Shown: positions 15,297 to 36,265 of the stretch, piece after piece
Layout of the letters: every line of letters begins with the position of its first letter
Numbering within the stretch: the stretch's first letter is position 1
Assembly (NCBI RefSeq): GCF_001677475.2
Contig: NZ_CP015229.1
Source: Escherichia coli
Lineage (GTDB): Bacteria > Pseudomonadota > Gammaproteobacteria > Enterobacterales > Enterobacteriaceae
Length of the DNA: 64,000 nt
Direction: 5' to 3' (one strand)
The notes under the pieces: model-generated
Database searches by the model: none
The model's input: the letters and a program-made list of their open reading frames with translations, nothing else
Told to the model about the DNA's origin: nothing
Position numbers and translations under genes: made by a program

Positions 15297-16550
15297 ATGC
15301 TGGAACAAATGGGCATTGCCGCGAAGCAAGCCTCGTATAAATTAGCGCAACTCTCCAGCCGCGAAAAAAATCGCGTGCTGGAAAAAATCGCCGATGAACT
15401 GGAAGCACAAAGCGAAATCATCCTCAACGCTAACGCCCAGGATGTTGCAGACGCGCGTGCCAATGGCCTTAGCGAAGCGATGCTTGACCGTCTGGCACTG
15501 ACGCCCGCACGGTTGAAAGGCATTGCCGACGATGTGCGCCAGGTGTGCAACCTCGCCGATCCGGTGGGGCAGGTGATTGATGGTGGTGTGCTGGACAGCG
15601 GTCTGCGTCTGGAGCGTCGTCGCGTACCGCTGGGGGTGATTGGCGTGATTTATGAAGCTCGCCCGAACGTGACAGTTGATGTCGCTTCGCTGTGCCTGAA
15701 AACCGGTAACGCAGTGATCCTGCGCGGTGGCAAAGAAACCTGTCGCACTAACGCTGCAACGGTGGCGGTGATTCAGGACGCCCTGAAATCCTGCGATTTA
15801 CCGGCGGGTGCCGTGCAGGCGATTGATAATCCTGACCGTGCGCTGGTCAGTGAAATGCTGCGTATGGATAAATACATCGACATGTTGATCCCGCGCGGCG
15901 GGGCTGGTTTGCATAAACTGTGCCGCGAACAGTCGACGATCCCGGTGATCACTGGTGGTATAGGCGTATGCCATATTTACGTTGATGAAAGTGCAGAGAT
16001 CGCTGAAGCCCTGAAAGTCATCGTCAACGCGAAAACCCAGCGTCCGAGCACATGTAATACGGTTGAAACGTTGCTGGTAAATAAAAACATAGCAGATAGC
16101 TTCCTGCCCGCATTAAGCAAACAAATGGCGGAAAGCGGCGTGACATTACACGCAGATGCAGCTGCGCTGGCGCAGTTGCAGACAGGCCCCGCGAAGGTGG
16201 TGGCGGTTAAAGCCGAAGAGTATGACGATGAGTTTCTGTCATTAGATTTGAACGTCAAAATCGTCAGCGATCTTGACGATGCCATCGCCCATATTCGTGA
16301 ACACGGCACGCAACACTCCGATGCGATCCTGACCCGCGATATGCGCAACGCCCAGCGTTTTGTTAACGAAGTGGATTCGTCCGCTGTTTACGTTAACGCC
16401 TCTACGCGTTTTACCGACGGCGGCCAGTTTGGACTGGGTGCGGAAGTGGCGGTAAGCACACAAAAACTCCACGCGCGTGGCCCAATGGGGCTGGAAGCGC
16501 TGACCACTTACAAGTGGATCGGCATTGGTGATTACACCATTCGTGCGTAA
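15297..16550 (+). CDS. proA: Gamma-glutamyl phosphate reductase
   Basis: 417 aa, aldehyde dehydrogenase-type fold, immediately downstream of proB. Confidence 0.95.
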
Positions 16551-16664
16551 ATAAAACCGGGTGATGCAAAACTAGCCATTTGATTCACAAGGCCATTGAC
16601 GCATCGCCCGGTTAGTTTTAACCTTGTCCACCGTGATTCACGTTCGTGAACATGTCCTTTCAGG

Positions 16665-16740
16665 GCCGATATAGCTCAGTTGGTAGAGCAGCGCATTCGT
16701 AATGCGAAGGTCGTAGGTTCGACTCCTATTATCGGCACCA
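16665..16740 (+). tRNA. thrW: tRNA-Thr (anticodon CGU)
   Basis: 76 nt GCCGATATAGCTCAGTTGGTAGAGCAGCGCATTCGTAATGCGAAGGTCGTAGGTTCGACTCCTATTATCGGCACCA; cloverleaf with CGT anticodon and encoded CCA end. Confidence 0.95.
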
Positions 16741-16754
16741 TTTAAATCAATAAG

Positions 16755-17021
16755 TTACACATCATTAGTACCTTCCTTATTTCTTGACTGGGACAAATTT
16801 GGGACCGATGGGTTCAGAATCGAGTCTATTTGCCGTGCGTGTTCGGTAAGGTGATTAGGTGCGAGGTGAGCATATCGACGAACCATTTCAAGAGTTTCCC
16901 ATCCTCCCATTTCTGTAAGTGCAAGAAGAGAAACACTGGACTGAACCAGCCTGCTTGCCTTTGCTATCAAAGTACCTTGAGGACCAGATGATTTCTGGCG
17001 ATATTTACAGCGCGTCCGCAA
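16755..17021 (-). pseudogene. Tyrosine-recombinase (phage/P4-type integrase) C-terminal remnant
   Basis: Only about 50 C-terminal residues are integrase-like ([34 protein letters not shown], with the catalytic Tyr region); no N-terminal or core domains upstream; adjacent to the tRNA attachment site. Confidence 0.65.
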
Positions 17022-17107
17022 TGAGTTTTTCTCCGTGCCGCCAGTGACGTTCCCCGCTTTTTCAGTGCGGCGATAATATCAGCGGGATGCCAGTCCTGTT
17101 GTGTCAT
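16966..17107 (-). pseudogene. Ner/Nlp(SfsB)-like HTH regulator, 5' fragment fused to the integrase remnant
   Basis: Begins [24 protein letters not shown], matching the Ner/Nlp N-terminus as recalled, then diverges and stops after about 46 codons; a Ner-like segment (LIAKA) continues in the integrase-remnant frame. Confidence 0.45.
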
Positions 17108-17574
17108 ACAACCACCTCGCTGATAAATTTTACGCCGTCGGCGGTGCGCAGCCAGCGCGGGGCTTTGAGTCCTTCCATGAAATACCAGACCAGTTCACAC
17201 AACAGCCCGGTCAGGGTTTGTTCCGTTTTTGGTTCCGCCGGGCGTTCCAGCAGAAGCTGGAGTAGTGCGAGGCAGTATTCGCACAAGGAATCTGGTTCGG
17301 AAATAAAGTGCTCTGGTGTGGCGGGAAGGGTATCAACGGTCAGGCTTTCAATCAGATGCGGCGGGATGGGGTCGTGCAGCGTGGGGTGCAATAGCGCAAG
17401 AGCCGCGTGAAGCCGTCCGCAGAGCGCTAGCCGTAGCGCGGGATCGTCGGTTTCGATCAGGGTTTCGGCGAAGCGGGCGCAGTAATCGGCAAGGACAGTA
17501 AAATCCGTGGTGGCATTGAAGGGGGCGGACAGCAGATCGAGTAAATCGCAGTCAGGGGTGAGGGTTGTAGCCAT
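17104..17574 (-). CDS. Hypothetical protein, 156 aa, acidic and Leu-rich, no recognised domain
   Basis: ORF with an AGGAGA Shine-Dalgarno about 7 nt upstream of the ATG at 17574 (longest ORF starts at 17628); stop overlaps the ATG of the Ner-like fragment (ATGA); GC-rich relative to the neighbouring RT gene. Confidence 0.5.
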   Translation of the reverse strand: MATTLTPDCDLLDLLSAPFNATTDFTVLADYCARFAETLIETDDPALRLALCGRLHAALALLHPTLHDPIPPHLIESLTVDTLPATPEHFISEPDSLCEYCLALLQLLLERPAEPKTEQTLTGLLCELVWYFMEGLKAPRWLRTADGVKFISEVVV

Positions 17575-17917
17575 AGGGCGTCTCCTGTAACGGTTTATTA
17601 TGTCCGCCACTAGAGAGGCTAATCTCATGGGGGGCGGAACCGGACGGGGTTAGCCTTACCGGCGTTACAGGAAACCGGCGCGTCTTGCGACGCCCCCGCC
17701 CGGCCCGCCATTGAGGTGTAGCCGAACGCACGACACAAAAAAGACGCTGGTGCGTCAAGTGTCGCCTGTAACGGTTTTCAGGAGGCTAATCCCGACGCCT
17801 GATTTTGCAGGCGCGGGAGAAAGATACTGCGATTGGTCATGAGTGGCAAGGGCTACATCCTGTTTACCGACATCTCACGCAAAAATACCCTGATTATTAA
17901 TAGCGAAAATCAGTTTC

Positions 17918-20900
17918 TTATTTTGGCGGTAGCTTTTTGCGGTTCTTTGCCAATTGGAATCCTTCAGGTAACGGTTTGAATTTATCGCCGCCTTTAGGCC
18001 AGCGTTTTGCCCTGCTCTGAAATGCCCTTAACGAGTCGATATCCAGTGTTGCAGCGATCACAAAGTCATTATCGCCGCCCTTCACACGAGCAATATCACG
18101 CATAAAGGGTTCTTTTGCCGGGGAACGTACGCGACTATCGCCGTATTTTCGGTTATTCACTAAAATGGTATAGGCATGAATATCCAGCGCTGCTGATTCA
18201 ATCAACGATGCAAACGTATCCAGATCTTTATTCCAGCTCAATACCATTAATGCATCGAGCGCGCCCTGAAAACGGATCCTCGCTTTACTATTCTGGAGTT
18301 CAGAGCAAATCATAACGCCAAAATTGACGCCGTGATGAATATATACCGGCTTACGTTGTTTAACATTAAGTGTCGAGTCCCAAGACTTACCATAAGTTGA
18401 AAATAATGCCTCATCTTCACCTACGGCGGGTTCCAGCTTGGGTTGCCATATTTTGACACTCGCTGGATAGCCGAGTCTGTTATCTGAAAGGACAAGTACG
18501 GCCTCACTCTTCAGTTGATTATCGCCTAAGTGGCGGTATTCTGTTCCCGCAATTAGACTGATACCCGCCGAACTCAAACGATCAGCAATACTGTTAACCC
18601 AGCGTAACGGGATTGAAAGCTCGGGGAATAAAACATAATCAGGTTTAGGAGATAGTTTCAATGTTGCATTAACCAGTTCAGAAATCCGCTGGTACCTTGA
18701 ACGGGACAAGTTAGATTTATTGCAGGCCATTTTAGCCCAGTCGTCTTCCTCTGTTTTAATGCTGGTTAGCGCAACGACAATTTTATGTTTCCTGTCAGTG
18801 CCAATATGAATGAATTTCTTAGGCCGAGCTTTTTTTGTCGCTTCATCTGAGTCCTGCTCCGATGCTAGTAACGTCGGTTTGATCCATACACCGCGTAATG
18901 CTTGAGTATATTTTGCCCAAACGGTGGACGGTCTCTCATCTGGTTTTTTGTCGGATGTAGAGGGTAATCCAACACATTCGGGGGCCAGTTCTGATATTTC
19001 AGCGGGAGTTAAAGGACGTGTAGGGAAAATGTAAGGTAGGTAACTTTCGTTCTTACGATTTCCTTTAGCCACTTTTTCCAGTCGGGTATTCTTGGTTGAT
19101 TTCAAAAATAGCTTAATAACGTCAATATCAATAAGCGATGAGTCCCTCATTAATTTCAGTATTTTAACTTCTTTTTTACGATCACGCTGATTAACAAGTT
19201 TTTCTGCCGACTGACTCTTTACGATCTGTTTATAAGGTTCCTTTGCTAAATCAGCTCGAGCTACCAATGGCGCTTTTAAATAAAAATCTGCTGAATCAAA
19301 GCGAAGATCCAGTAAATCCTTTAGATTTGTCAGACTTTGTGAAATATGATTAAAAAATGTATCCGCAAGGCACTCTTCTTTCTTTGAACGTTTATCAAGA
19401 AATAATCTGTCAGGACTGTAATATCGTGTCGCTGCATCAACAAATAGCCAGCTTAATGTGCCTTTTATACAGCGCCAAAGATCATTTACTGCTCGAGTTT
19501 TGCAACCATTTATAGTCACTTCCTTACCTGAAGTAATCACCGATGCCAACAGGTTGATGGACTCGTAAGCTTTAAGTACAATTTTTTCCGCGTGCTGCCA
19601 TTCATTCATACTGATAGCAAAGCCAAGCAGCCTTGGCAGATAACTAAAATGTGCAAATAGATTATCAGCCCTAAGAATATGGTTGTAGGCAAACTGATAA
19701 AACTCTTCCCGCTGTTCTTTCCATTCACTTGGAGACAGATCTCGTGCCAGTGTTTCAACGTAGCGTAATTGCAGTGACCAGCCCAAACGACGAATGGTTA
19801 ATCCATCCGCACGGCGCAGAGTATCGGCATTTTCACCTACACTACCGGCAGCGGAAAGGACTTTAGCTGCGGTGGAGTGTTCCAGTTGATCCGGTGAAGG
19901 CATCAAGCGGTGTTCACTAGAAAGCTCGTAGATCTCCTTTTCGATACTGTCGAGCAGATCTATTCCTGCCCTCCCTTGAAGCACGAAAAGTTTTTGCTTA
20001 TCGGATTGTAACTGGATGGTGGTCTTACCCTGGAAATGCTCGCCCTGCTGTATTTGCCATATTTGTTTTTTCTCGTTTTTCAGATAAACGCAATCATTGC
20101 CAAGCCTATCTTGCAGCAATAACATAAATTCGTGATTATTAGTAATTTTACCTGTATCGCGTATTACAAGGAACATATCATCGACATAACGACCGTAGTG
20201 AATTGGCGACAGTTTTTCAATGACTAATTTATCCCAATGGTGTAGCAATATATTGGAAATGATCCGACTGGCTGTTAATCCAATGACCAGACCACCATTA
20301 ATAACAGGTGTTTTGTACGCTATTTTTTTTCCAAATGCCGCTGCGCCGTCAGACCAGTGCTTTAAGAATACAGCTAACTGTGCAGTAAACGCTTTTTCAT
20401 GCTCAGTCAGTTTTATGTTTAGTGTGTTATAGAGATCATCAGAGGTTATAGCCAGTGGATCAATAAAATGATAGTAACTTTTTAAATCCAGTGAGGCGGC
20501 GATAATGTCACGATCTTTTTCCAACTCGTCACGTATAGCTTTTAAGCCATCACCACGCCATTTTTGGTAGGGCTGGAAATAGGGGCTAAAAGAACCCACG
20601 GCACTGATATGGAATGGATTATCCTGCTCATTGCTAAATAATTCATCATTACGAATACGTTTTAGCCGCGCGCCATAACAACAGTTGTCTAAGCTGGCAT
20701 CAAATTTATGCCCGACCATATTAATCCATAGTGCAGAGATAATGTGACTATCAACCGGGAAGTCACCAATAATACGAAACTCTGGTATCAGATCAAAATT
20801 ATTAAATAAATGGTCGGCTGCTCGTTTAGGATTAGAAAAGTGGACGTGTCCATTTTGGAATTCATGTTTTTTCTTTGTGGTTAATTTTTTCGGTAACAAA

Positions 20901-21127
20901 CGAAATTTGCCAATCAACTTCTTATTGCTACTGAATCCATCTTCGCTCTGCAAAATATCTAAGAGTTCTTGCAGGTTTTCAATTAATTCCTGCTCATACT
21001 CGGCAAATTTGATAGCAACAGGAAATGTATTCTCAAAGAAGCTATCGGCTTTGGCTTTCCGGTAAGCGACCAGAAGGTCTTCAATCGTCAGATCATCCCA
21101 GCCAGTGAAAGTTGCCTGATATGTCAT
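17918..21127 (-). CDS. Reverse transcriptase fused to a C-terminal nitrilase (CN-hydrolase) domain; UG/Abi-type defence-associated RT (DRT type 1 / UG1-like architecture)
   Basis: 1069 aa. RT motifs: motif A ASLDLKSYYHFID, motif B GLVIGLTASRIISNILL, motif C YGRYVDDMFLV (about aa 310-320). C-terminal ~280 aa carry a nitrilase-like Glu/Cys pattern (VLFPELSIP ... GVMICSELQ). AT-rich gene in an island next to a tRNA. Confidence 0.85.
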   Translation of the reverse strand: MTYQATFTGWDDLTIEDLLVAYRKAKADSFFENTFPVAIKFAEYEQELIENLQELLDILQSEDGFSSNKKLIGKFRLLPKKLTTKKKHEFQNGHVHFSNPKRAADHLFNNFDLIPEFRIIGDFPVDSHIISALWINMVGHKFDASLDNCCYGARLKRIRNDELFSNEQDNPFHISAVGSFSPYFQPYQKWRGDGLKAIRDELEKDRDIIAASLDLKSYYHFIDPLAITSDDLYNTLNIKLTEHEKAFTAQLAVFLKHWSDGAAAFGKKIAYKTPVINGGLVIGLTASRIISNILLHHWDKLVIEKLSPIHYGRYVDDMFLVIRDTGKITNNHEFMLLLQDRLGNDCVYLKNEKKQIWQIQQGEHFQGKTTIQLQSDKQKLFVLQGRAGIDLLDSIEKEIYELSSEHRLMPSPDQLEHSTAAKVLSAAGSVGENADTLRRADGLTIRRLGWSLQLRYVETLARDLSPSEWKEQREEFYQFAYNHILRADNLFAHFSYLPRLLGFAISMNEWQHAEKIVLKAYESINLLASVITSGKEVTINGCKTRAVNDLWRCIKGTLSWLFVDAATRYYSPDRLFLDKRSKKEECLADTFFNHISQSLTNLKDLLDLRFDSADFYLKAPLVARADLAKEPYKQIVKSQSAEKLVNQRDRKKEVKILKLMRDSSLIDIDVIKLFLKSTKNTRLEKVAKGNRKNESYLPYIFPTRPLTPAEISELAPECVGLPSTSDKKPDERPSTVWAKYTQALRGVWIKPTLLASEQDSDEATKKARPKKFIHIGTDRKHKIVVALTSIKTEEDDWAKMACNKSNLSRSRYQRISELVNATLKLSPKPDYVLFPELSIPLRWVNSIADRLSSAGISLIAGTEYRHLGDNQLKSEAVLVLSDNRLGYPASVKIWQPKLEPAVGEDEALFSTYGKSWDSTLNVKQRKPVYIHHGVNFGVMICSELQNSKARIRFQGALDALMVLSWNKDLDTFASLIESAALDIHAYTILVNNRKYGDSRVRSPAKEPFMRDIARVKGGDNDFVIAATLDIDSLRAFQSRAKRWPKGGDKFKPLPEGFQLAKNRKKLPPK

Positions 21128-21422
21128 GCGTTATCGTCCTTAGATTAAAGTCTGTACAGAATTAGCCAGCCGTTTCATGCCCGAAGGAGGTGCTCTTGAC
21201 ACCAGTAATCCATCAGTGAGGCTGGCAATAATTTTGATTTGTATCCATGTTACACGCTCCCCGCAACCAGTCCGAGCATATATTTGTCACATTTTTCCCG
21301 AAAGTGATTAAGTTTGAATTTTTTGTTTAATGTCGATTTTTAGTCGACAAAATGAGGAATAAGTAAATTATTTCTTGCTGTGGCGTATCCCTGAACCTAC
21401 ACTGGTTTAAATATTTGTACTA

Positions 21423-22226
21423 ATGTCTATTCAGGGGCGACATTTGCCAAATTATCTAAACTGGCTGATGCAGAATACGCTACCCGGTCAGGTGCTGCTC
21501 CAGTCATGGCTTACCCGCAACGGCGTAGATCGTAAGCTCTCTTACCTCTATGTCCAGAATGGCTGGCTCAGGCGGATCGCTCACGGCGTATACTGCCGGA
21601 CGGGTCGTGAACCGGACTGGGTGGACGCGGTTTACTGCCTGCAAACACAGTGGGAAAAGCCAGTACGGGTGGCGGGGCTAACCAGCCTTGCGCTTCAGGG
21701 CCATGCGCACTATACCGAACCGGGTAAGCCGCAAATCTGGCTCGCGCTTCCGGCTTACGTCAAACTGCCGGGATGGTTTGCTGCCTTCGAACAATCTGCA
21801 ACATTTATCACGCTGTATACATCGGGCCTTACCGTTGATGTCACGTCATTTACTACGGAACTGAAAATTGGCGACCGGCAGTTAGCAGGCAGTGCCCCGG
21901 AACTGGCCGCGTATGAGATCGCCTGCGGCGTTCCTTCGTTGATATCGTTCGAACATGCCGATGCTCTGTTTCAGGGGATGAATCTTCTCAGCCCGCGTAA
22001 ATTGCAGGCGTTACTCTGCGCCAGTCATTCGGTTAAAACCAACCGGGTGATGCTTTACCTTGCCCGGCGTAATGGACACCCTTATTTTCAGTATATTGAT
22101 CAAAGCGGTATAGAAACAGGTACGGGAAAGCGGCAAATCATACCCGGCGGCTGGCTGGAGCCGGATTATCAAATTACTGTTCCACGCGAATTTAAACCGG
22201 AAGGAGTCGAAGATGGATCTGCGTGA
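21423..22226 (+). CDS. AbiEi-family antitoxin / transcriptional regulator (type IV TA, abortive infection)
   Basis: 267 aa; N-terminal winged-helix pattern (LTRNGVDRKLSYLYVQNGWLRRIAHGVYCRTG) typical of AbiEi; overlaps the downstream nucleotidyltransferase gene by 14 nt. Confidence 0.65.
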   Translation: MSIQGRHLPNYLNWLMQNTLPGQVLLQSWLTRNGVDRKLSYLYVQNGWLRRIAHGVYCRTGREPDWVDAVYCLQTQWEKPVRVAGLTSLALQGHAHYTEPGKPQIWLALPAYVKLPGWFAAFEQSATFITLYTSGLTVDVTSFTTELKIGDRQLAGSAPELAAYEIACGVPSLISFEHADALFQGMNLLSPRKLQALLCASHSVKTNRVMLYLARRNGHPYFQYIDQSGIETGTGKRQIIPGGWLEPDYQITVPREFKPEGVEDGSA

Positions 22227-23133
22227 TAGCTATACCCGGCAGGTCAAACTGTTGATGGCCGCTCTGCCGCATGTGGCGAAGGAGTCCTGTTTCGCGTTGA
22301 AAGGCGGCACGGCAATCAATTTGTTTGTGCAGGATTTTCCCCGTCTGTCGGTGGATATCGATCTGGCGTATAAGACTTTTGCGGATCGCGATACCGATTT
22401 GACGGCGATCAACGACGCTTTGAAGAGAATTACTGCATCGCTGAACAGTAAACCGGGGATTACCGCGATTCGGCAGGAAAATAAAACGGATGAAAAGCGC
22501 ATCATTGTGAATACGGCTGATGCCCAGATTAAGATCGAGGTTAGTCCGGTCTGGCGTGGGCTGTTGTTGCCTCCGGCAGAAATGTCGGTGTGCGAACGTG
22601 TGGAAATGGAGTATGGCTTCACCACTATGAGTGTCGTTTCGCTGGCGGATCTTTATGGCGGTAAAATCTGCGCAGCGCTTGATCGTCAGCACCCGCGCGA
22701 TCTGTTTGATGTGCTGAATATGCTGGAGAAACCGGGACTGATGCGGGAGATCTTTGACGGTTTTCTTTGTTATCTGGCAGGCCATCCCCGCCCCATTGCC
22801 GAGTTGCTGGCCCCAAACTGGGATACAGAGCGGATCACGACGCTGTATGCCCAGGAATTTTCGGGGATGACTCAGCAGGAAACGTCGCTGGAATCGCTGC
22901 TGTCAGTAACGACTTTGCTGCCGCAGGCGTTGAAGTCACATCTTACGGATCTGGATCGCGAGTTCTTGCTCAGTTTTAAGCAAAACAGCCCTGACTGGTC
23001 GCGGTATCGCTATCCTGAAATTCAGCATCTTCCGGCTATTCGCTGGAAGCAACGCAATCTGGCGGTGCTTAAAGATAAAAATCCGGCGAAGTATGTGGCG
23101 GCGGTGAATAAGCTAGAGAGGGTGCTGGAGTAA
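22213..23133 (+). CDS. AbiEii/AbiGii-family nucleotidyltransferase toxin (DUF1814)
   Basis: 306 aa; N-terminal LKGGTAINLF and DIDLAY motifs of the AbiEii nucleotidyltransferase fold; translationally coupled to the upstream AbiEi-like gene. Confidence 0.75.
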   Translation: MDLRDSYTRQVKLLMAALPHVAKESCFALKGGTAINLFVQDFPRLSVDIDLAYKTFADRDTDLTAINDALKRITASLNSKPGITAIRQENKTDEKRIIVNTADAQIKIEVSPVWRGLLLPPAEMSVCERVEMEYGFTTMSVVSLADLYGGKICAALDRQHPRDLFDVLNMLEKPGLMREIFDGFLCYLAGHPRPIAELLAPNWDTERITTLYAQEFSGMTQQETSLESLLSVTTLLPQALKSHLTDLDREFLLSFKQNSPDWSRYRYPEIQHLPAIRWKQRNLAVLKDKNPAKYVAAVNKLERVLE

Positions 23134-23538
23134 TATTCTTAGCGCTGTTCAGGGACTCTGAATTGGGCCATGATGCTTTGGTTATATGAATAACTTCGTG
23201 GCCATAACTCAAACATATTCATTTAATTCAATACATAGCACCATCGAGTAAGAGATCGCTGAGTCATTAGACGATCTCTGCTCGTGGAAATACGAAACTA
23301 TCTCTTTCCAAAGCTGATCTGAATAACATTATCTGGAGCATCATTATTAGACCTGATGATCTCATGCTCAATAAAATCCCCCCATTTCAAAAAAAGATCC
23401 CGTAATTTTTCCGCCTGCTGCCCGACCTGATAAGTTCTGATTAATCTGTCTTTCGGAACATGATTCAACAGAAGTTCTATAAGCCGTTCTGGCGCATCCA
23501 GATACTCAGCACAGCCTGTAGAGTGCAGGTGCAGACAT

Positions 23539-24438
23539 TTAAGCCAATTGCTGCCGCCATTCCTTGACGTGGTCAATCAGGGCGCGGAGCTTTGGTGCAA
23601 TATTGCGACGCTGTGGGAAATACAGATAGAAGCCCGGAAATTGTGGAAGAAAGTCATCAAGCAGCGATACAAGCTTACCGCTTTCAATATATGGCCTGAA
23701 CGTTTCCTGAGTGGCAATTGTTATTCCTCCGCCGGCAAGAGCCAGCCTCAACATCAGACGCAGATCATTCGTCGTAATCTGCGGTTCAATCGCAAGGTCG
23801 AAAGCTCTACCGTTTTCTTCAAATGGCCAGCGATAAGGAGCAACCTCCGGGGACTGACGCCAGCCGATACACTTATGATTCACAAGTTCACGCGGGTGAA
23901 CAGGTGTGCTGTTGGCTGCGAGATAGGAGGGAGAGGCAACGACCATTTCACGCTGCCTGGCGGTAAGGGGAACAGCAATCATGTCTTTTTCAATGACCTC
24001 TCCGAGCCTTACGCCAGCATCGTAACCTGCGGCAACGATATCGAATTCCTCATCCGTGACAACAATATCAAGCGTAACGGCTGGATTGGCAGCTGCAAAC
24101 GAAGCGATTAGCGGACCTGAAAGAAATTCTTCTGCTATCGACGTCACCGCGATTCTGAGATGTCCACGTGGTACATGGTCAGAAACCATCTCTTCGAACG
24201 CTGCCTCAATACCGGATAAAGGTAATGACAACGATTTATGCAGCCGTTCTCCCGCTTCCGTCAAATTAACTGAGCGCGTGGTCCGCATTACAAGCATTGT
24301 CCCGAATGCATCTTCAAGGCGTCTTATTCCCTGACTGACCGCTGAACGGGTAACGCCCAGTCGTGCGGCGGCTTTACTGAAATTACTCTCTTCTGCTACC
24401 GCGATAAAAATGGGTAAAAGATTAAGATCGATTTTCAT
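23539..24438 (-). CDS. LysR-family transcriptional regulator
   Basis: 299 aa; N-terminal HTH (FSKAAARLGVTRSAVSQGIRRLE) and LysR substrate-binding domain; divergent from an SDR gene. Confidence 0.85.
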   Translation of the reverse strand: MKIDLNLLPIFIAVAEESNFSKAAARLGVTRSAVSQGIRRLEDAFGTMLVMRTTRSVNLTEAGERLHKSLSLPLSGIEAAFEEMVSDHVPRGHLRIAVTSIAEEFLSGPLIASFAAANPAVTLDIVVTDEEFDIVAAGYDAGVRLGEVIEKDMIAVPLTARQREMVVASPSYLAANSTPVHPRELVNHKCIGWRQSPEVAPYRWPFEENGRAFDLAIEPQITTNDLRLMLRLALAGGGITIATQETFRPYIESGKLVSLLDDFLPQFPGFYLYFPQRRNIAPKLRALIDHVKEWRQQLA

Positions 24439-24536
24439 TGTTTAATGCCGCTAACCACTGAGTACATTGAAAGCAGGATACTGGAACCAATCATAAAGTT
24501 CTATTATCTCTCCGAACACATTTGAAGGAGAACGTA

Positions 24537-25259
24537 ATGGATAAGGTCATATTAATCACCGGCGCATCAAGTGGTATTGGGGAAGGTATTGCCAGAGAAC
24601 TGGGAACGACAGGTGCGAAGGTTTTACTGGGCGCACGCAGAGTTGAGCGTATCGAAGCCATTGCAACCGAAATCTGCCTCGCAGGAGGAATTGCTAAAGC
24701 GCGGGAGTTGGATGTCACAGACCGACAGTCCATGGCCGATTTCGTGCAAGCAGCGCTGGATAACTGGGGGCGAGTTGATGTTCTTATCAATAATGCGGGC
24801 GTTATGCCGCTTTCACCGCTTGCAGCAGGAAAACAGGATGAATGGGAGCTCACTATTGACGTGAATATCAAAGGTGTACTGTGGGGAATTGGCGCTGTAC
24901 TTCCGGTGATGGAAGCACAGGGTTCCGGTCAGATAATCAATCTTGGTTCTATTGGTGCCCTTTCTGTTGTGCCCACAGGCGCAGTCTATTGTGCATCAAA
25001 ATTTGCAGTACGGGCTATTTCTGATGGCTTACGGCAGGAAAGCTCGAAAATCCGTGTGACCTGCGTAAATCCTGGCGTTGTCGAAAGTGAACTGGCTTCA
25101 ACCATTACCCATGTGGAAACCATGAAGGCAATGGACGCCTACCGTTCTGTTGCACTTCAACCCGCGGATATTGCCCGTGCTGTAAGGCATATTATTGAAT
25201 CTCCCGAAAGCGTTGATACAACCGAAATTACCATCAGACCCACTGCATCTGCAAACTGA
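24537..25259 (+). CDS. Short-chain dehydrogenase/reductase (SDR) family oxidoreductase
   Basis: TGASSGIG Rossmann motif and the S...YxxxK catalytic pattern (YCASK); start taken at MDKVILITG. Confidence 0.85.
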   Translation: MDKVILITGASSGIGEGIARELGTTGAKVLLGARRVERIEAIATEICLAGGIAKARELDVTDRQSMADFVQAALDNWGRVDVLINNAGVMPLSPLAAGKQDEWELTIDVNIKGVLWGIGAVLPVMEAQGSGQIINLGSIGALSVVPTGAVYCASKFAVRAISDGLRQESSKIRVTCVNPGVVESELASTITHVETMKAMDAYRSVALQPADIARAVRHIIESPESVDTTEITIRPTASAN

Positions 25260-25470
25260 AGAATAACTTTTACATTCACGTTTTATTAAATATGTCAGAA
25301 GGAAAATTTATATCCACCTGTTTTGCATAGCAAGATGCATTATGTATTGCTCACCCCGAAGGAGATGAAGTTTTAATTACAGAAGGAGTATTTTCTCTTG
25401 GAGTAAATATGGCTCATGTTTAATGCCTATGTATATAAAACTCATCCTCTCAATTGTCAGGAGAATTAAC

Positions 25471-25701
25471 ATGAATACTATCTGTTCTTTAATTGTTGTG
25501 GTTACACTGTCTTTATTATCATTCAGTAGCGTCGCCAAAACGATTACTGCCGTCGGTTCAACCATCGACAGCACTGAAAAAGAAATTTCTTTACAGGCAG
25601 AAAAACAAGGAAAATCATATAAAATTCTGGGCGCATTTTTCAAGAACAGAGTTTATATTATAGCAAAGTTAACACCAGTCAGTAAAAATGATGCTTCATA
25701 A
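25471..25701 (+). CDS. Small secreted DUF1471 (YdgH/BhsA/McbA-like) protein
   Basis: About 76 aa with a signal peptide (MNTICSLIVVVTLSLLSFSSVA) and a mature part resembling the BhsA/YhcN family; boundaries uncertain. Confidence 0.5.
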   Translation: MNTICSLIVVVTLSLLSFSSVAKTITAVGSTIDSTEKEISLQAEKQGKSYKILGAFFKNRVYIIAKLTPVSKNDAS

Positions 25702-25752
25702 GGCTCATGATATAATTTTTAAGACATGATCAAGAAGCACGTTTATTTATTC

Positions 25753-25880
25753 ATATACTCTAAATAATTCAAGTTGCAGGAAGGCGACAAGTGAGTGAAT
25801 CCCCAGGAGCTTACAAAAGTAAGTGACTGGGGTGAATGAACGCAGTCGCAGCACATGCAACTTGAAGTATGACGAGTATA
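25753..25880. repeat. ERIC/IRU element, copy 2
   Basis: Over 90% identical by eye to the copy at 6873-7008 (GTGAATCCCCAGGAGCTTAC ... AAGTAAGTGACTGGGGTGAATG). Confidence 0.85.
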
Positions 25881-26031
25881 ATTATCATTATTATGGCCAT
25901 GGAATACCTGACAAATGACGCTACCCCAACCTTCTGTACCAGTCGTTCTGCTAATTCTACCGATGCTTCGGTCTGGAGTGGTAGAGTAATATTAGACACA
26001 GTTTTATTTTCTCTCTTTTTCGAGGGCTGTA

Positions 26032-26297
26032 TATGAACAGGAAGAATACATCCCTAAGCGGTTAATGCTGGCGTAATCAATAGACCAGCATTAATCACAG
26101 ATGATTATCAATCAGACAGAAATGGTTAAATCGTCGAATTCATAATTAATACTTTTTGTAACGCCGCTGAATAGCTTGAAAAGGATGTATATTTTAAATA
26201 TCAGTGAAGTGAACAGTTTATTGCCGTTATTAATAGAAATGGAGGAATAAATACGCGTATTCTACTATTGCAACAAAAACAACGATATTGATCATTT
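26032..26297. repeat. Intergenic repeat module, intact copy (two halves contiguous)
   Basis: First half matches 44674-44784 and second half matches 45478-45622 (for example TATTTTAAATATCAGTGAAGTGAACAGTTTATTGCCGTTATTAATAGAAATGGAG); contains an internal inverted repeat TTAATGCTGG...CCAGCATTAA. Confidence 0.7.
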
Positions 26298-26527
26298 TTC
26301 ATAATGAAGTAACCTGACAGATATAAAAATGTTGATTGAGGCTAAATGCCCGGATGAAGGTTGTCGAGGGAGCCAGGTTGTTTTTTCTTTTGGATGATCT
26401 CCATTGCTGGATAGTCCCCTTGTACAGATAAGTCTGCTCTTTCTCGCTCAAAGCAGACCCTGGAATTGAACGCAGAGTGACTACCTGACACAATATTGCA
26501 CCGTGAAGAGTCGGTCGTTGTTAACGT

Positions 26528-36019: not shown

Positions 36020-36033
36020 TGTAATGAATGATA

Positions 36034-36060
36034 AAAATGGCGCAAATACAGCGCCATTTT
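36034..36060 (+). terminator. Hairpin terminator downstream of yagU
   Basis: AAATGGCGCAAATACAGCGCCATTT stem-loop followed by a T-run. Confidence 0.65.
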
Positions 36061-36265
36061 TATAGGTTAAAAACATTGCTTTTTATATTCTGATGCAGCT
36101 AGTCAGTGAGCATATCGCGCCACTTCAGGATGATGTAGATCCGAAGAACGCTACAGAAGAGAGGCATTGTTGCTGGCAAATAGAAGAAGTTTCGGGTTTT
36201 GTTGCCCCTAAAAACGAAGCCCCGCTATTACAGTAGGCGGGGCAGTGCAATTAATTATTGCATAT

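Follow-up and report, generated by a model that had tools for sequence, protein, structure and literature searches.

The UG5-large proteins form one group of the class 3 UG/Abi reverse transcriptases (RTs) (Mestre et al. 2022, PMC9226505), and a gene assigned to this group, located on the minus strand at 17918..21127 of a 64,000-nt stretch of Escherichia coli DNA (RefSeq assembly GCF_001677475.2, contig NZ_CP015229.1; hereafter the window), is described here. DRT11, the UG5-large RT-nitrilase of Sinorhizobium meliloti RMO17 (WP_040120558.1, 1005 aa), protects S. meliloti at low multiplicity of infection only, in an abortive-infection-like manner that needs DD296-297 and C876; an upstream deletion of 179 bp was without effect and no flanking transcript was found (Sanchez-Nieto et al. 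2025, bioRxiv 10.64898/2025.12.16.694600). The UG5 RT-nitrilase of E. coli E101 was validated as anti-phage together with a single-transmembrane (1TM) gene, at room temperature only (Rousset et al. 2022, PMC9122126). This transmembrane (TM) gene (clusters 85/1858) is accessory rather than defining, as it occurs in 31 of 299 UG5-large loci (PMC9226505). DNA that proteinase K can release was also obtained, with no template, from purified DRT5L, another UG5-large protein, and from DRT5S, a UG5-small protein (Neville et al. 2026, PMC13275509). In the sister family DRT1, A-rich DNA is synthesized on Ser402 in a template-free, protein-primed reaction, and the DNA adducts drive the formation of tetramers and then of dormant filaments held via the nitrilase domains (PMC13275509). 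A domain-swapped C-terminal tail closes the DRT1 nitrilase pocket, and K1219A and A1223F abolish defence; the RT DD motif (D324/D325) and C1116 are needed as well, defence being lost in C1116A, and the T4 Dda helicase is necessary, not sufficient, for activation (PMC13275509). The class 1 UG/Abi enzymes AbiK, AbiA and Abi-P2 carry out protein-primed, template-independent synthesis of random DNA and act by abortive infection. They lack a nitrilase effector, prime on Tyr and form hexamers or trimers of HEAT-like repeats.

With DRT11, the window protein (1069 aa) shares the YVDD of its RT, a connector built of helices and, at the C-terminus, a nitrilase that has the catalytic Cys, and both are encoded by single genes with neither a TM partner nor a flanking non-coding RNA (ncRNA). 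DRT11 lies in a variable region beside an AbiEii-type toxin and the window gene lies beside AbiEi/AbiEii, but the former is carried by an alphaproteobacterial megaplasmid and the latter by an enterobacterial chromosomal island. DRT5L, of about 947 aa, represents a distant branch: BLAST aligned the nitrilase (30% identity, E 2e-20) and the RT (24% identity, E 1e-16) and left the middle domain unaligned. YVD(D), SS-x-F-R-L-P, ELS...C-x-E and a C-terminal K-x-x-P-x-G-F are common to DRT5L and the window protein; the paper gives no defence data for DRT5L. The E101 system, encoded by a P4-like satellite, resembles the window locus in its UG5 RT with C-terminal nitrilase and in its integrative element with P4-type features, yet it requires a downstream TM gene, which was not found at the window locus. 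DRT1 of Klebsiella pneumoniae (Drt1a, Protein Data Bank (PDB) 9YFD) joins RT, helical domain and nitrilase in one chain, as the window protein does, and its alpha-helical repeat domain (PMC13275509) corresponds to the helical middle domain here. The two are homologous in both enzymatic domains, with the catalytic residues, a C-terminal lid motif and a conserved Ser after the RT domain present in each, and the Lys-to-Glu spacing of the DRT1 family (K1080, E1087) equals that of K897-E904, although DRT1 is ~160 aa longer and profile identity is 15-20%. A TM gene, drt1b, accompanies ~18% of drt1 genes. What was computed here for the window protein is its family, both folds, the intact and invariant catalytic residues, the absence of any partner gene and of any flanking RNA, and the purifying selection on the gene. 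The preferred reading, to which we give a probability of about 0.6, is that the locus encodes a stand-alone UG5-large defence RT-nitrilase with a DRT1-like mechanism, carried on a decayed island at thrW.

Family assignment and domain structure

The list of open reading frames (ORFs) holds exactly the long minus-strand ORF claimed in an earlier note on this DNA, with 1069 aa and an ATG start at 17918..21127; a Shine-Dalgarno sequence, AAGGA, lies 9 nt 5' of the ATG. Translation recovered every motif quoted in that note at its residues: ASLDLKSYYHFID, which includes D214 (nucleotide coordinates verified by translation), GLVIGLTASRIISNILL (residues 279-295), YVDD (residues 314-317), FPELS, which includes E836, and MICSE, which includes C941. 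The ORF is also AT-rich, as had been noticed, with a GC content of 41.8% (38% at third codon positions, GC3) vs 49.4% for the window, the core neighbours frsA, proB and proA being at 53-55%.

The PADLOC profile RT_UG5-nitrilase PDLC03780 spanned the protein, with residues 1-1068 aligned to positions 9-901 of its 907 (E=0, 1031.7 bits). The best non-UG5 RT model in PADLOC, Drt1a PDLC03745, reached 91 bits over residues 151-430 only, and PDLC02171 (Drt1a) reached 34 bits over residues 940-1045. The match to a second RT_UG5-nitrilase model, PDLC02995, was confined to residues 18-411, and RTasNitrilase matched residues 783-1058 (E 7.8e-43). Because of the PADLOC profile scores (1032 bits over the full length vs 91), the protein is assigned to UG5-large (also DRT11 or DRT5L), a class 3 UG/Abi RT group and sister of DRT1, and not to DRT1/UG1. 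The note had labelled it DRT type 1/UG1; its reading as a single-gene, defence-associated RT-nitrilase fusion stood, the group being class 3 UG/Abi, and the subfamily had to be revised. The sequence and structural marks of UG5-large were all found, namely the family profile, an RT with motif A Asp and YVDD, a C-terminal nitrilase and a helical middle, whereas the protein showed no whole-protein best match to Drt1a and has 1069 aa rather than the 1200-1300 aa of DRT1/UG1.

Besides this defence-profile search, the note had proposed a Pfam search for RVT_1 and CN_hydrolase and a structure prediction. The Pfam-A search gave no significant match on the 1069-aa protein, neither RVT_1 nor CN_hydrolase, and Pfam-only screening misses the protein entirely. 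The protein was aligned with 63 relatives that are diverse and 27-76% identical (alignment A1, 64 sequences); when each member was scanned, RVT_1 was found in 47 of the 64 and CN_hydrolase in 0 of the 64, both at E<=0.001. No precomputed Pfam domains were present on full-length relatives of 69-81% identity. Since Pfam was silent on the protein itself, the domains were established via the RVT_1 matches of its relatives, profile alignment to solved RTs and DRT1, and the predicted fold. A search of every PDB sequence with the A1 profile found DRT1 9YFD at E 8.3e-28, with separate RT and nitrilase matches, followed by Drt3a, Drt2, retron RTs, a diversity-generating retroelement (DGR) RT and group II RTs. 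In the profile alignment to DRT1, YVDD paired with the D324/D325 YVDD and C941 with C1116. The AlphaFold2 model built from A1 had a mean predicted local distance difference test score (pLDDT) of 88.1, below 50 only at residues 431-440, and a predicted template modelling score (pTM) of 0.90. It was almost all helix over ~residues 385-760, where the note had placed a helical linker, and Foldseek against the PDB gave probability 1.0 to nitrilase-superfamily amidases, nitrilases and carbamoylases, small-molecule amidases and Nit2 being closest in fold. By profile and predicted fold, both the RT domain and the nitrilase domain are thus real and their catalytic residues complete. The features of the gene, with residue numbers of the protein, are given below; further invariant columns of A1 are N292, D299, Y311 and R313.

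17918..21127, minus strand: complete UG5-large RT-nitrilase gene, stop codon included (ORF list and PADLOC PDLC03780)
19976..21100, minus strand: N-terminal extension and reverse-transcriptase domain, ~aa 10-384
20486..20488, minus strand: motif A catalytic Asp214, invariant in 64/64 sequences of A1
20177..20188, minus strand: motif C Y314-V-D316-D317, with Y314, D316 and D317 invariant in A1; aligned with the DRT1 YVDD
19898..19921, minus strand: S403-S404-E-H-R407-L-M-P410, conserved SSExRLLP motif with the candidate protein-priming serine (conservation in A1)
18833..19819, minus strand: all-helical middle domain joining RT and nitrilase, ~aa 437-765 (AlphaFold2, pLDDT mostly >85)
18008..18820, minus strand: C-terminal nitrilase-superfamily (CN-hydrolase) domain, ~aa 770-1040
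18620..18622, minus strand: nitrilase catalytic Glu836, invariant 64/64
18437..18439, minus strand: nitrilase catalytic Lys897, invariant 64/64
18416..18418, minus strand: second catalytic Glu904 (Lys+7, as in canonical nitrilases and DRT1), invariant 64/64
18305..18307, minus strand: nitrilase nucleophile Cys941, invariant in A1; aligned with DRT1 Cys1116
17957..17977, minus strand: K1051-P-L-P1054-E-G-F1057, putative counterpart of the DRT1 domain-swapped active-site lid (A1 and DRT1 alignment)

The gene is already known: public annotation and the profiles of defence finders include it, and validation exists for close members of the family. The PGAP label is "RNA-directed DNA polymerase" or "hypothetical protein", the copy in strain 042 is WP_000222103.1, and an NCBI cluster 98% identical to the protein is named RNA-directed DNA polymerase [E. 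coli]; a literature look-up of the accession WP_000222103 found nothing. The family was catalogued between 2014 and 2022 and is covered by a PADLOC model of its own. E. coli and Sinorhizobium have each served to validate relatives, and a cryo-EM mechanism of the sister family appeared in 2026. As a finding, the locus contributes little new biology. Its practical value is that of a natural single-gene, partner-free UG5-large allele native to E. coli and present in ~5% of complete genomes, strain 042 included, which could make it a convenient system to ask about the nitrilase substrate, the releasing phage factor and priming at Ser404.

Ser404, the C-terminal lid and a possible mechanism

The present work adds two elements, the invariant Ser404 (SSExRLLP) as a priming candidate and a C-terminal K-x-x-P-x-G-F lid common to DRT1. 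In A1, S404 is conserved in 64/64 sequences, E405 in 62/64, R407 in 63/64 and P410 in 62/64, and SS-x-F-[RL]-L-P also occurs in the biochemically tested DRT5L and DRT5S. For comparison, S402 and R407 of DRT1 were invariant in all 30 sequences of a DRT1-family alignment (alignment A2, 1219-1253 aa). As hhalign of full-length A1 against A2 gave the nitrilase region only, the N-terminal halves were rerun separately, and these aligned with a probability of 98.9% (E 1e-17), with the conserved K377 pairing with DRT1 K373 and S404 coming within 3 residues of the priming S402. The segment is shared but its motif differs, being S-G-P-A-D-R in DRT1 and S-S-E-x-R-L-L-P here. Ser404 is consequently presented as a candidate priming residue, on an alignment that is not residue-exact. 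In the lid motif, K1051 and P1054 are invariant and G1056 and F1057 near-invariant in A1; K1051-x-x-P-x-G-F aligned with K1219-T-Q-P-A-G-F of DRT1, and the DRT5L version reads K-H-N-P-P-G-F. A wider proposal is that every UG5 RT-nitrilase, whether large or small, could prime itself on Ser404, and that, together with the lid, the DRT1 scheme could be general to class 3 RT-nitrilases; we hold this tentatively, at somewhat less than even odds. If true, it would contradict the published remark on the non-conserved priming serine of DRT1.

The earlier note had stated that such enzymes have no established template, product or mechanism. Work on relatives has made this outdated (PMC13275509, bioRxiv 10.64898/2025.12.16.694600, PMC9122126). 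The DRT1 scheme could apply to the window protein because the same catalytic residues, the C-terminal K-x-x-P-x-G-F and an invariant Ser404 motif are present. Under this scheme, the RT domain would prime on its own side chain without an RNA template, most plausibly on Ser404, and add a short semi-random single-stranded DNA tail. The covalent DNA adducts would promote oligomerization through the nitrilase domains into a pre-assembled silent state, in which the K-x-x-P-x-G-F tail of a neighbouring protomer would close the nitrilase pocket. A phage replication-stage factor might then disturb the assembly, and the freed E-K-E-C nitrilase would hydrolyse an essential C-N compound, so that the infected cell aborts the infection. 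All four steps would be carried over from the relatives DRT1, DRT5L and DRT11. The 1069-aa protein, a homologue of DRT1 though outside that family, probably works like it.

Several points weigh against a DRT1-like defence function. The hhalign alignment places DRT1 S402 on R407, 3 residues past S404, and not on S404 itself, and the DRT1 paper calls the priming Ser not conserved in other class 3 RTs (PMC13275509). Identity is only 24-30% to the tested DRT5L and 15-20% to DRT1, and filament formation has been shown for DRT1 only (PMC13275509). In E. coli, the one UG5 system with validated defence depended on a TM partner and on room temperature (PMC9122126; PMC9226505). Furthermore, no sigma-70-like site was found upstream of the RT gene on the coding strand, and expression of the gene is not assured in an island that is itself decayed (integrase fragments).

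Distribution, genomic company and competing explanations

The gene was found in 260 of 5426 complete E. coli genomes (4.8%) at 98.3-98.6% nucleotide identity. It was chromosomal in all carriers but 1 and intact in 259 of 260, the remaining copy being interrupted by IS5. Comparison with the strain 042 copy revealed 31 synonymous and 16 non-synonymous differences, giving a ratio of non-synonymous to synonymous substitution rates (dN/dS) of 0.14, and none of the differences fell at invariant sites; the gene is under purifying selection. Outside E. coli, phmmer searches of 1.84 billion cluster representatives returned 2016 proteins at E<=0.001, of which 853 reached E<=1e-30, and full-length relatives of 69-81% identity occurred across Gammaproteobacteria, including Citrobacter, Salmonella, Yersinia, Vibrio, Marinobacter, Idiomarina and others. 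With more than 2000 matching cluster representatives and a dN/dS of 0.14, the RT-nitrilase is far beyond a chance observation. No relative was found by tblastn in 50,697 phage records.

Relatives of 70-76% identity were located in different genetic contexts, with upstream gaps of 12 nt, 55 nt or -4 nt and no shared RNA. Given these varied contexts and the near-zero intergenic space, a conserved partner gene is absent, and a conserved flanking RNA would find no space. In contigs of Yersinia, Citrobacter and Salmonella and in a Pleionea-like contig (L003, L004, L006, L007 and L008), the RT followed hsdR-hsdM-hsdS-kwaA-kwaB(-like) genes at 12-55 nt. These RTs were 72-76% identical to the window protein, had the same orientation as the preceding genes and were often near a tRNA and an integrase; type I restriction-modification (R-M), Kiwa and UG5 form a recurrent cassette. 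A gene of 531-588 aa overlapped the RT start by 4 nt in two other cases, a Vibrio genome and one metagenome contig (L005 4238-6004, L009 3-1598). This gene has a weak SMC_N match and no counterpart in the window, and it may be a partner in some UG5-large branches. In one further contig, the RT followed hsdS and a Fic gene. The genomic company of the relatives was consistently defensive.

The evidence above also bears on four other explanations. If the protein were a DRT type 1 (UG1) member working exactly as the solved Klebsiella DRT1, this would agree with 9YFD being its only significant solved relative, with the common architecture, catalytic residues and lid, and with the reported nesting of UG1 nitrilases within the UG5 radiation (bioRxiv 10.64898/2025.12.16.694600). 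However, the 91 bits of Drt1a cover no more than residues 151-430 while the full-length RT_UG5-nitrilase match has 1032 bits, the 30 DRT1-family sequences are 1219-1253 aa long against 1069 aa, profile identity is 15-20%, and the S-G-P-A-D-R priming motif is not present as such, which leaves this explanation very improbable. A conventional templated RT, be it a retron, group II intron, DGR or ncRNA-templated class 2 DRT enzyme with complementary DNA (cDNA) as its active product, is given a similarly small chance. The RT core is akin to those of retron, Drt2 and Drt3 RTs, and the isrK and C4 RNA genes lie directly downstream on the same strand. Nevertheless, NCBIfam returned only retron, Drt2, Drt3a and Drt4 RT matches at 21-33 bits, below cut-offs of 200-450 (retron_St85_RT: 33 bits, cut-off 235), and PHROGs gave only weak RT or unknown-function matches. 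A search of 16000-24000 with Rfam at E<=1 found no retron msr/msd, group II intron, DGR or CRISPR RNA, in agreement with the note, which had seen no retron, Cas or group II intron context; the only RNAs were isrK, C4 and its a1b1 targets. The isrK/C4 genes have their own promoter-like site and terminator, are missing beside 7 relatives and belong to a P1/P4-type immunity region. Moreover, the relatives leave almost no intergenic space on either side of the RT, DRT11 tolerates the 179-bp upstream deletion and has no flanking transcript (bioRxiv 10.64898/2025.12.16.694600), and the C-terminal region is a nitrilase rather than an X/En domain.

The loss of a required partner, a TM effector as in E101 or an upstream ATPase as in certain relatives, would make the gene an orphan UG5-large and an inactive passenger of a decaying island. 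The island does hold integrase fragments only and has no att repeat, the E. coli E101 system requires its TM gene (PMC9226505, PMC9122126), and L005 and L009 carry the upstream 531-588 aa gene that overlaps the RT start by 4 nt. No TM ORF was found at the window locus: a hydropathy scan with a 19-residue window over ORFs of at least 40 aa in 16700-21500 found none besides a 46-aa antisense hydrophobic ORF overlapping the RT gene 3' end. This explanation is nevertheless judged unlikely, though by no means negligible, as the gene is intact in 259 of 260 carriers, shows a dN/dS of 0.14 with invariant sites free of substitutions, and belongs to a group in which just 31 of 299 loci have the TM gene (PMC9226505). 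In addition, DRT11 is active without a TM gene (bioRxiv 10.64898/2025.12.16.694600), and the PDLC03780 match runs the length of the protein, that of PDLC02995 just over residues 18-411. The resemblance of the nitrilase fold to small-molecule amidases and Nit2 would also suit a nitrilase of housekeeping or metabolic function that is joined to a polymerase-like domain and takes no part in phage defence. This seems barely credible for a gene that lies on an AT-rich island, is carried by just 4.8% of E. coli genomes and is always found among defence genes (AbiE, type I R-M, Kiwa, Fic), the relatives of which are experimentally defensive (PMC9122126; bioRxiv 10.64898/2025.12.16.694600; PMC13275509). 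A stand-alone defence RT-nitrilase with a DRT1-like mechanism is retained as the preferred reading.

The thrW island and neighbouring features

The island that holds the RT gene is small, integrative and decayed, and lies at tRNA-Thr (thrW). The tRNA gene noticed earlier is tRNA-Thr(CGT) at 16665-16740 on the plus strand, 1.2 kb past the 3' end of the ORF and the sole ARAGORN tRNA in the window. Core genes of E. coli flank the island: one flank has frsA, crl, phoE, proB, proA and thrW, the opposite flank has LysR, SDR and ykgR, and between them lie an integrase fragment, a broken helix-turn-helix (HTH) gene, a 174-aa ORF, the RT gene, abiEi-abiEii and a second integrase fragment. A search for an att site at thrW found no relevant direct repeat of at least 14 nt in 16600-26500; as no such repeat survives, the element is immobilized. 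The features surrounding the RT gene are as follows.

Within 16755-17107, minus strand: integrase C-terminal fragment, 88 aa, adjoining the tRNA
16967-17107, minus strand: broken HTH/repressor-like ORF
17104-17628, minus strand: soluble 174-aa ORF, 56.8% GC, immediately 3' of the C4 RNA
17627-17715, minus strand: C4 antisense RNA (Rfam, 73.7 bits)
17737-17814, minus strand: isrK small RNA (Rfam, 68 bits), directly 3' of the RT stop codon
17775-17827, minus strand: C4 a1b1 target sites, sub-threshold (Rfam)
21128..21422, no strand assigned: divergent intergenic region between the RT gene and abiEi, 295 nt, presumably with both promoters inside
21423-22226, plus strand: AbiEi (PADLOC E 7.6e-79)
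22213-23133, plus strand: AbiEii (PADLOC E 7.8e-117)
23298-23576, minus strand: second integrase C-terminal fragment

PADLOC bore out the AbiE pair that had been named as a neighbour. The two genes share a 14-nt overlap, run divergently to the RT gene and have the features of an AbiE operon. In the intergenic region, a promoter-like site was found on the plus strand only (21344-21371), and Rfam at E<=1 detected no RNA family in 21128..21422. Functional coupling of AbiE and the RT was considered and rejected, the pair being divergent from the RT gene and not conserved beside its relatives. Because the other relatives examined have no AbiE beside them, the adjacency probably reflects clustering in a defence island.

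Downstream of the RT gene, the isrK/C4 stretch has its own promoter-like site (17849-17821) and an intrinsic terminator (17756-17743), and isrK and C4 were not found beside the 7 relatives. A role of isrK/C4 as the RT template or as part of the system was rejected on these grounds, and the stretch looks like the P1/P4/Gifsy-type immunity leader of the decayed element. In E. coli genomes, the PGAP annotation places an 'ash family protein' ORF across 17627-17827. The 174-aa ORF at 17104-17628, which had no PADLOC, NCBIfam or PHROG match, sits where icd/ant or anrP sit in C4/IsrK-controlled operons.

Comparison of the island (16600-23400) with E. coli TUM13936 showed that identity varies along its length. 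The RT gene was 98-99% identical, the integrase/C4 end (16600-18096) 85-92%, and the intergenic region with abiEi (21097-22096) 92-94%; this mosaic suggests recombination within the island. Near ykgR, the segment 25595-26094 is a local indel or replacement: it was only ~72% identical to TUM13936, and gaps made up 125 of the 500 columns of the block. Elsewhere in the window, a full-length IS009 RNA (RF02111, 193.5 bits) was located at 36025-36223 on the plus strand, in a low-GC stretch.

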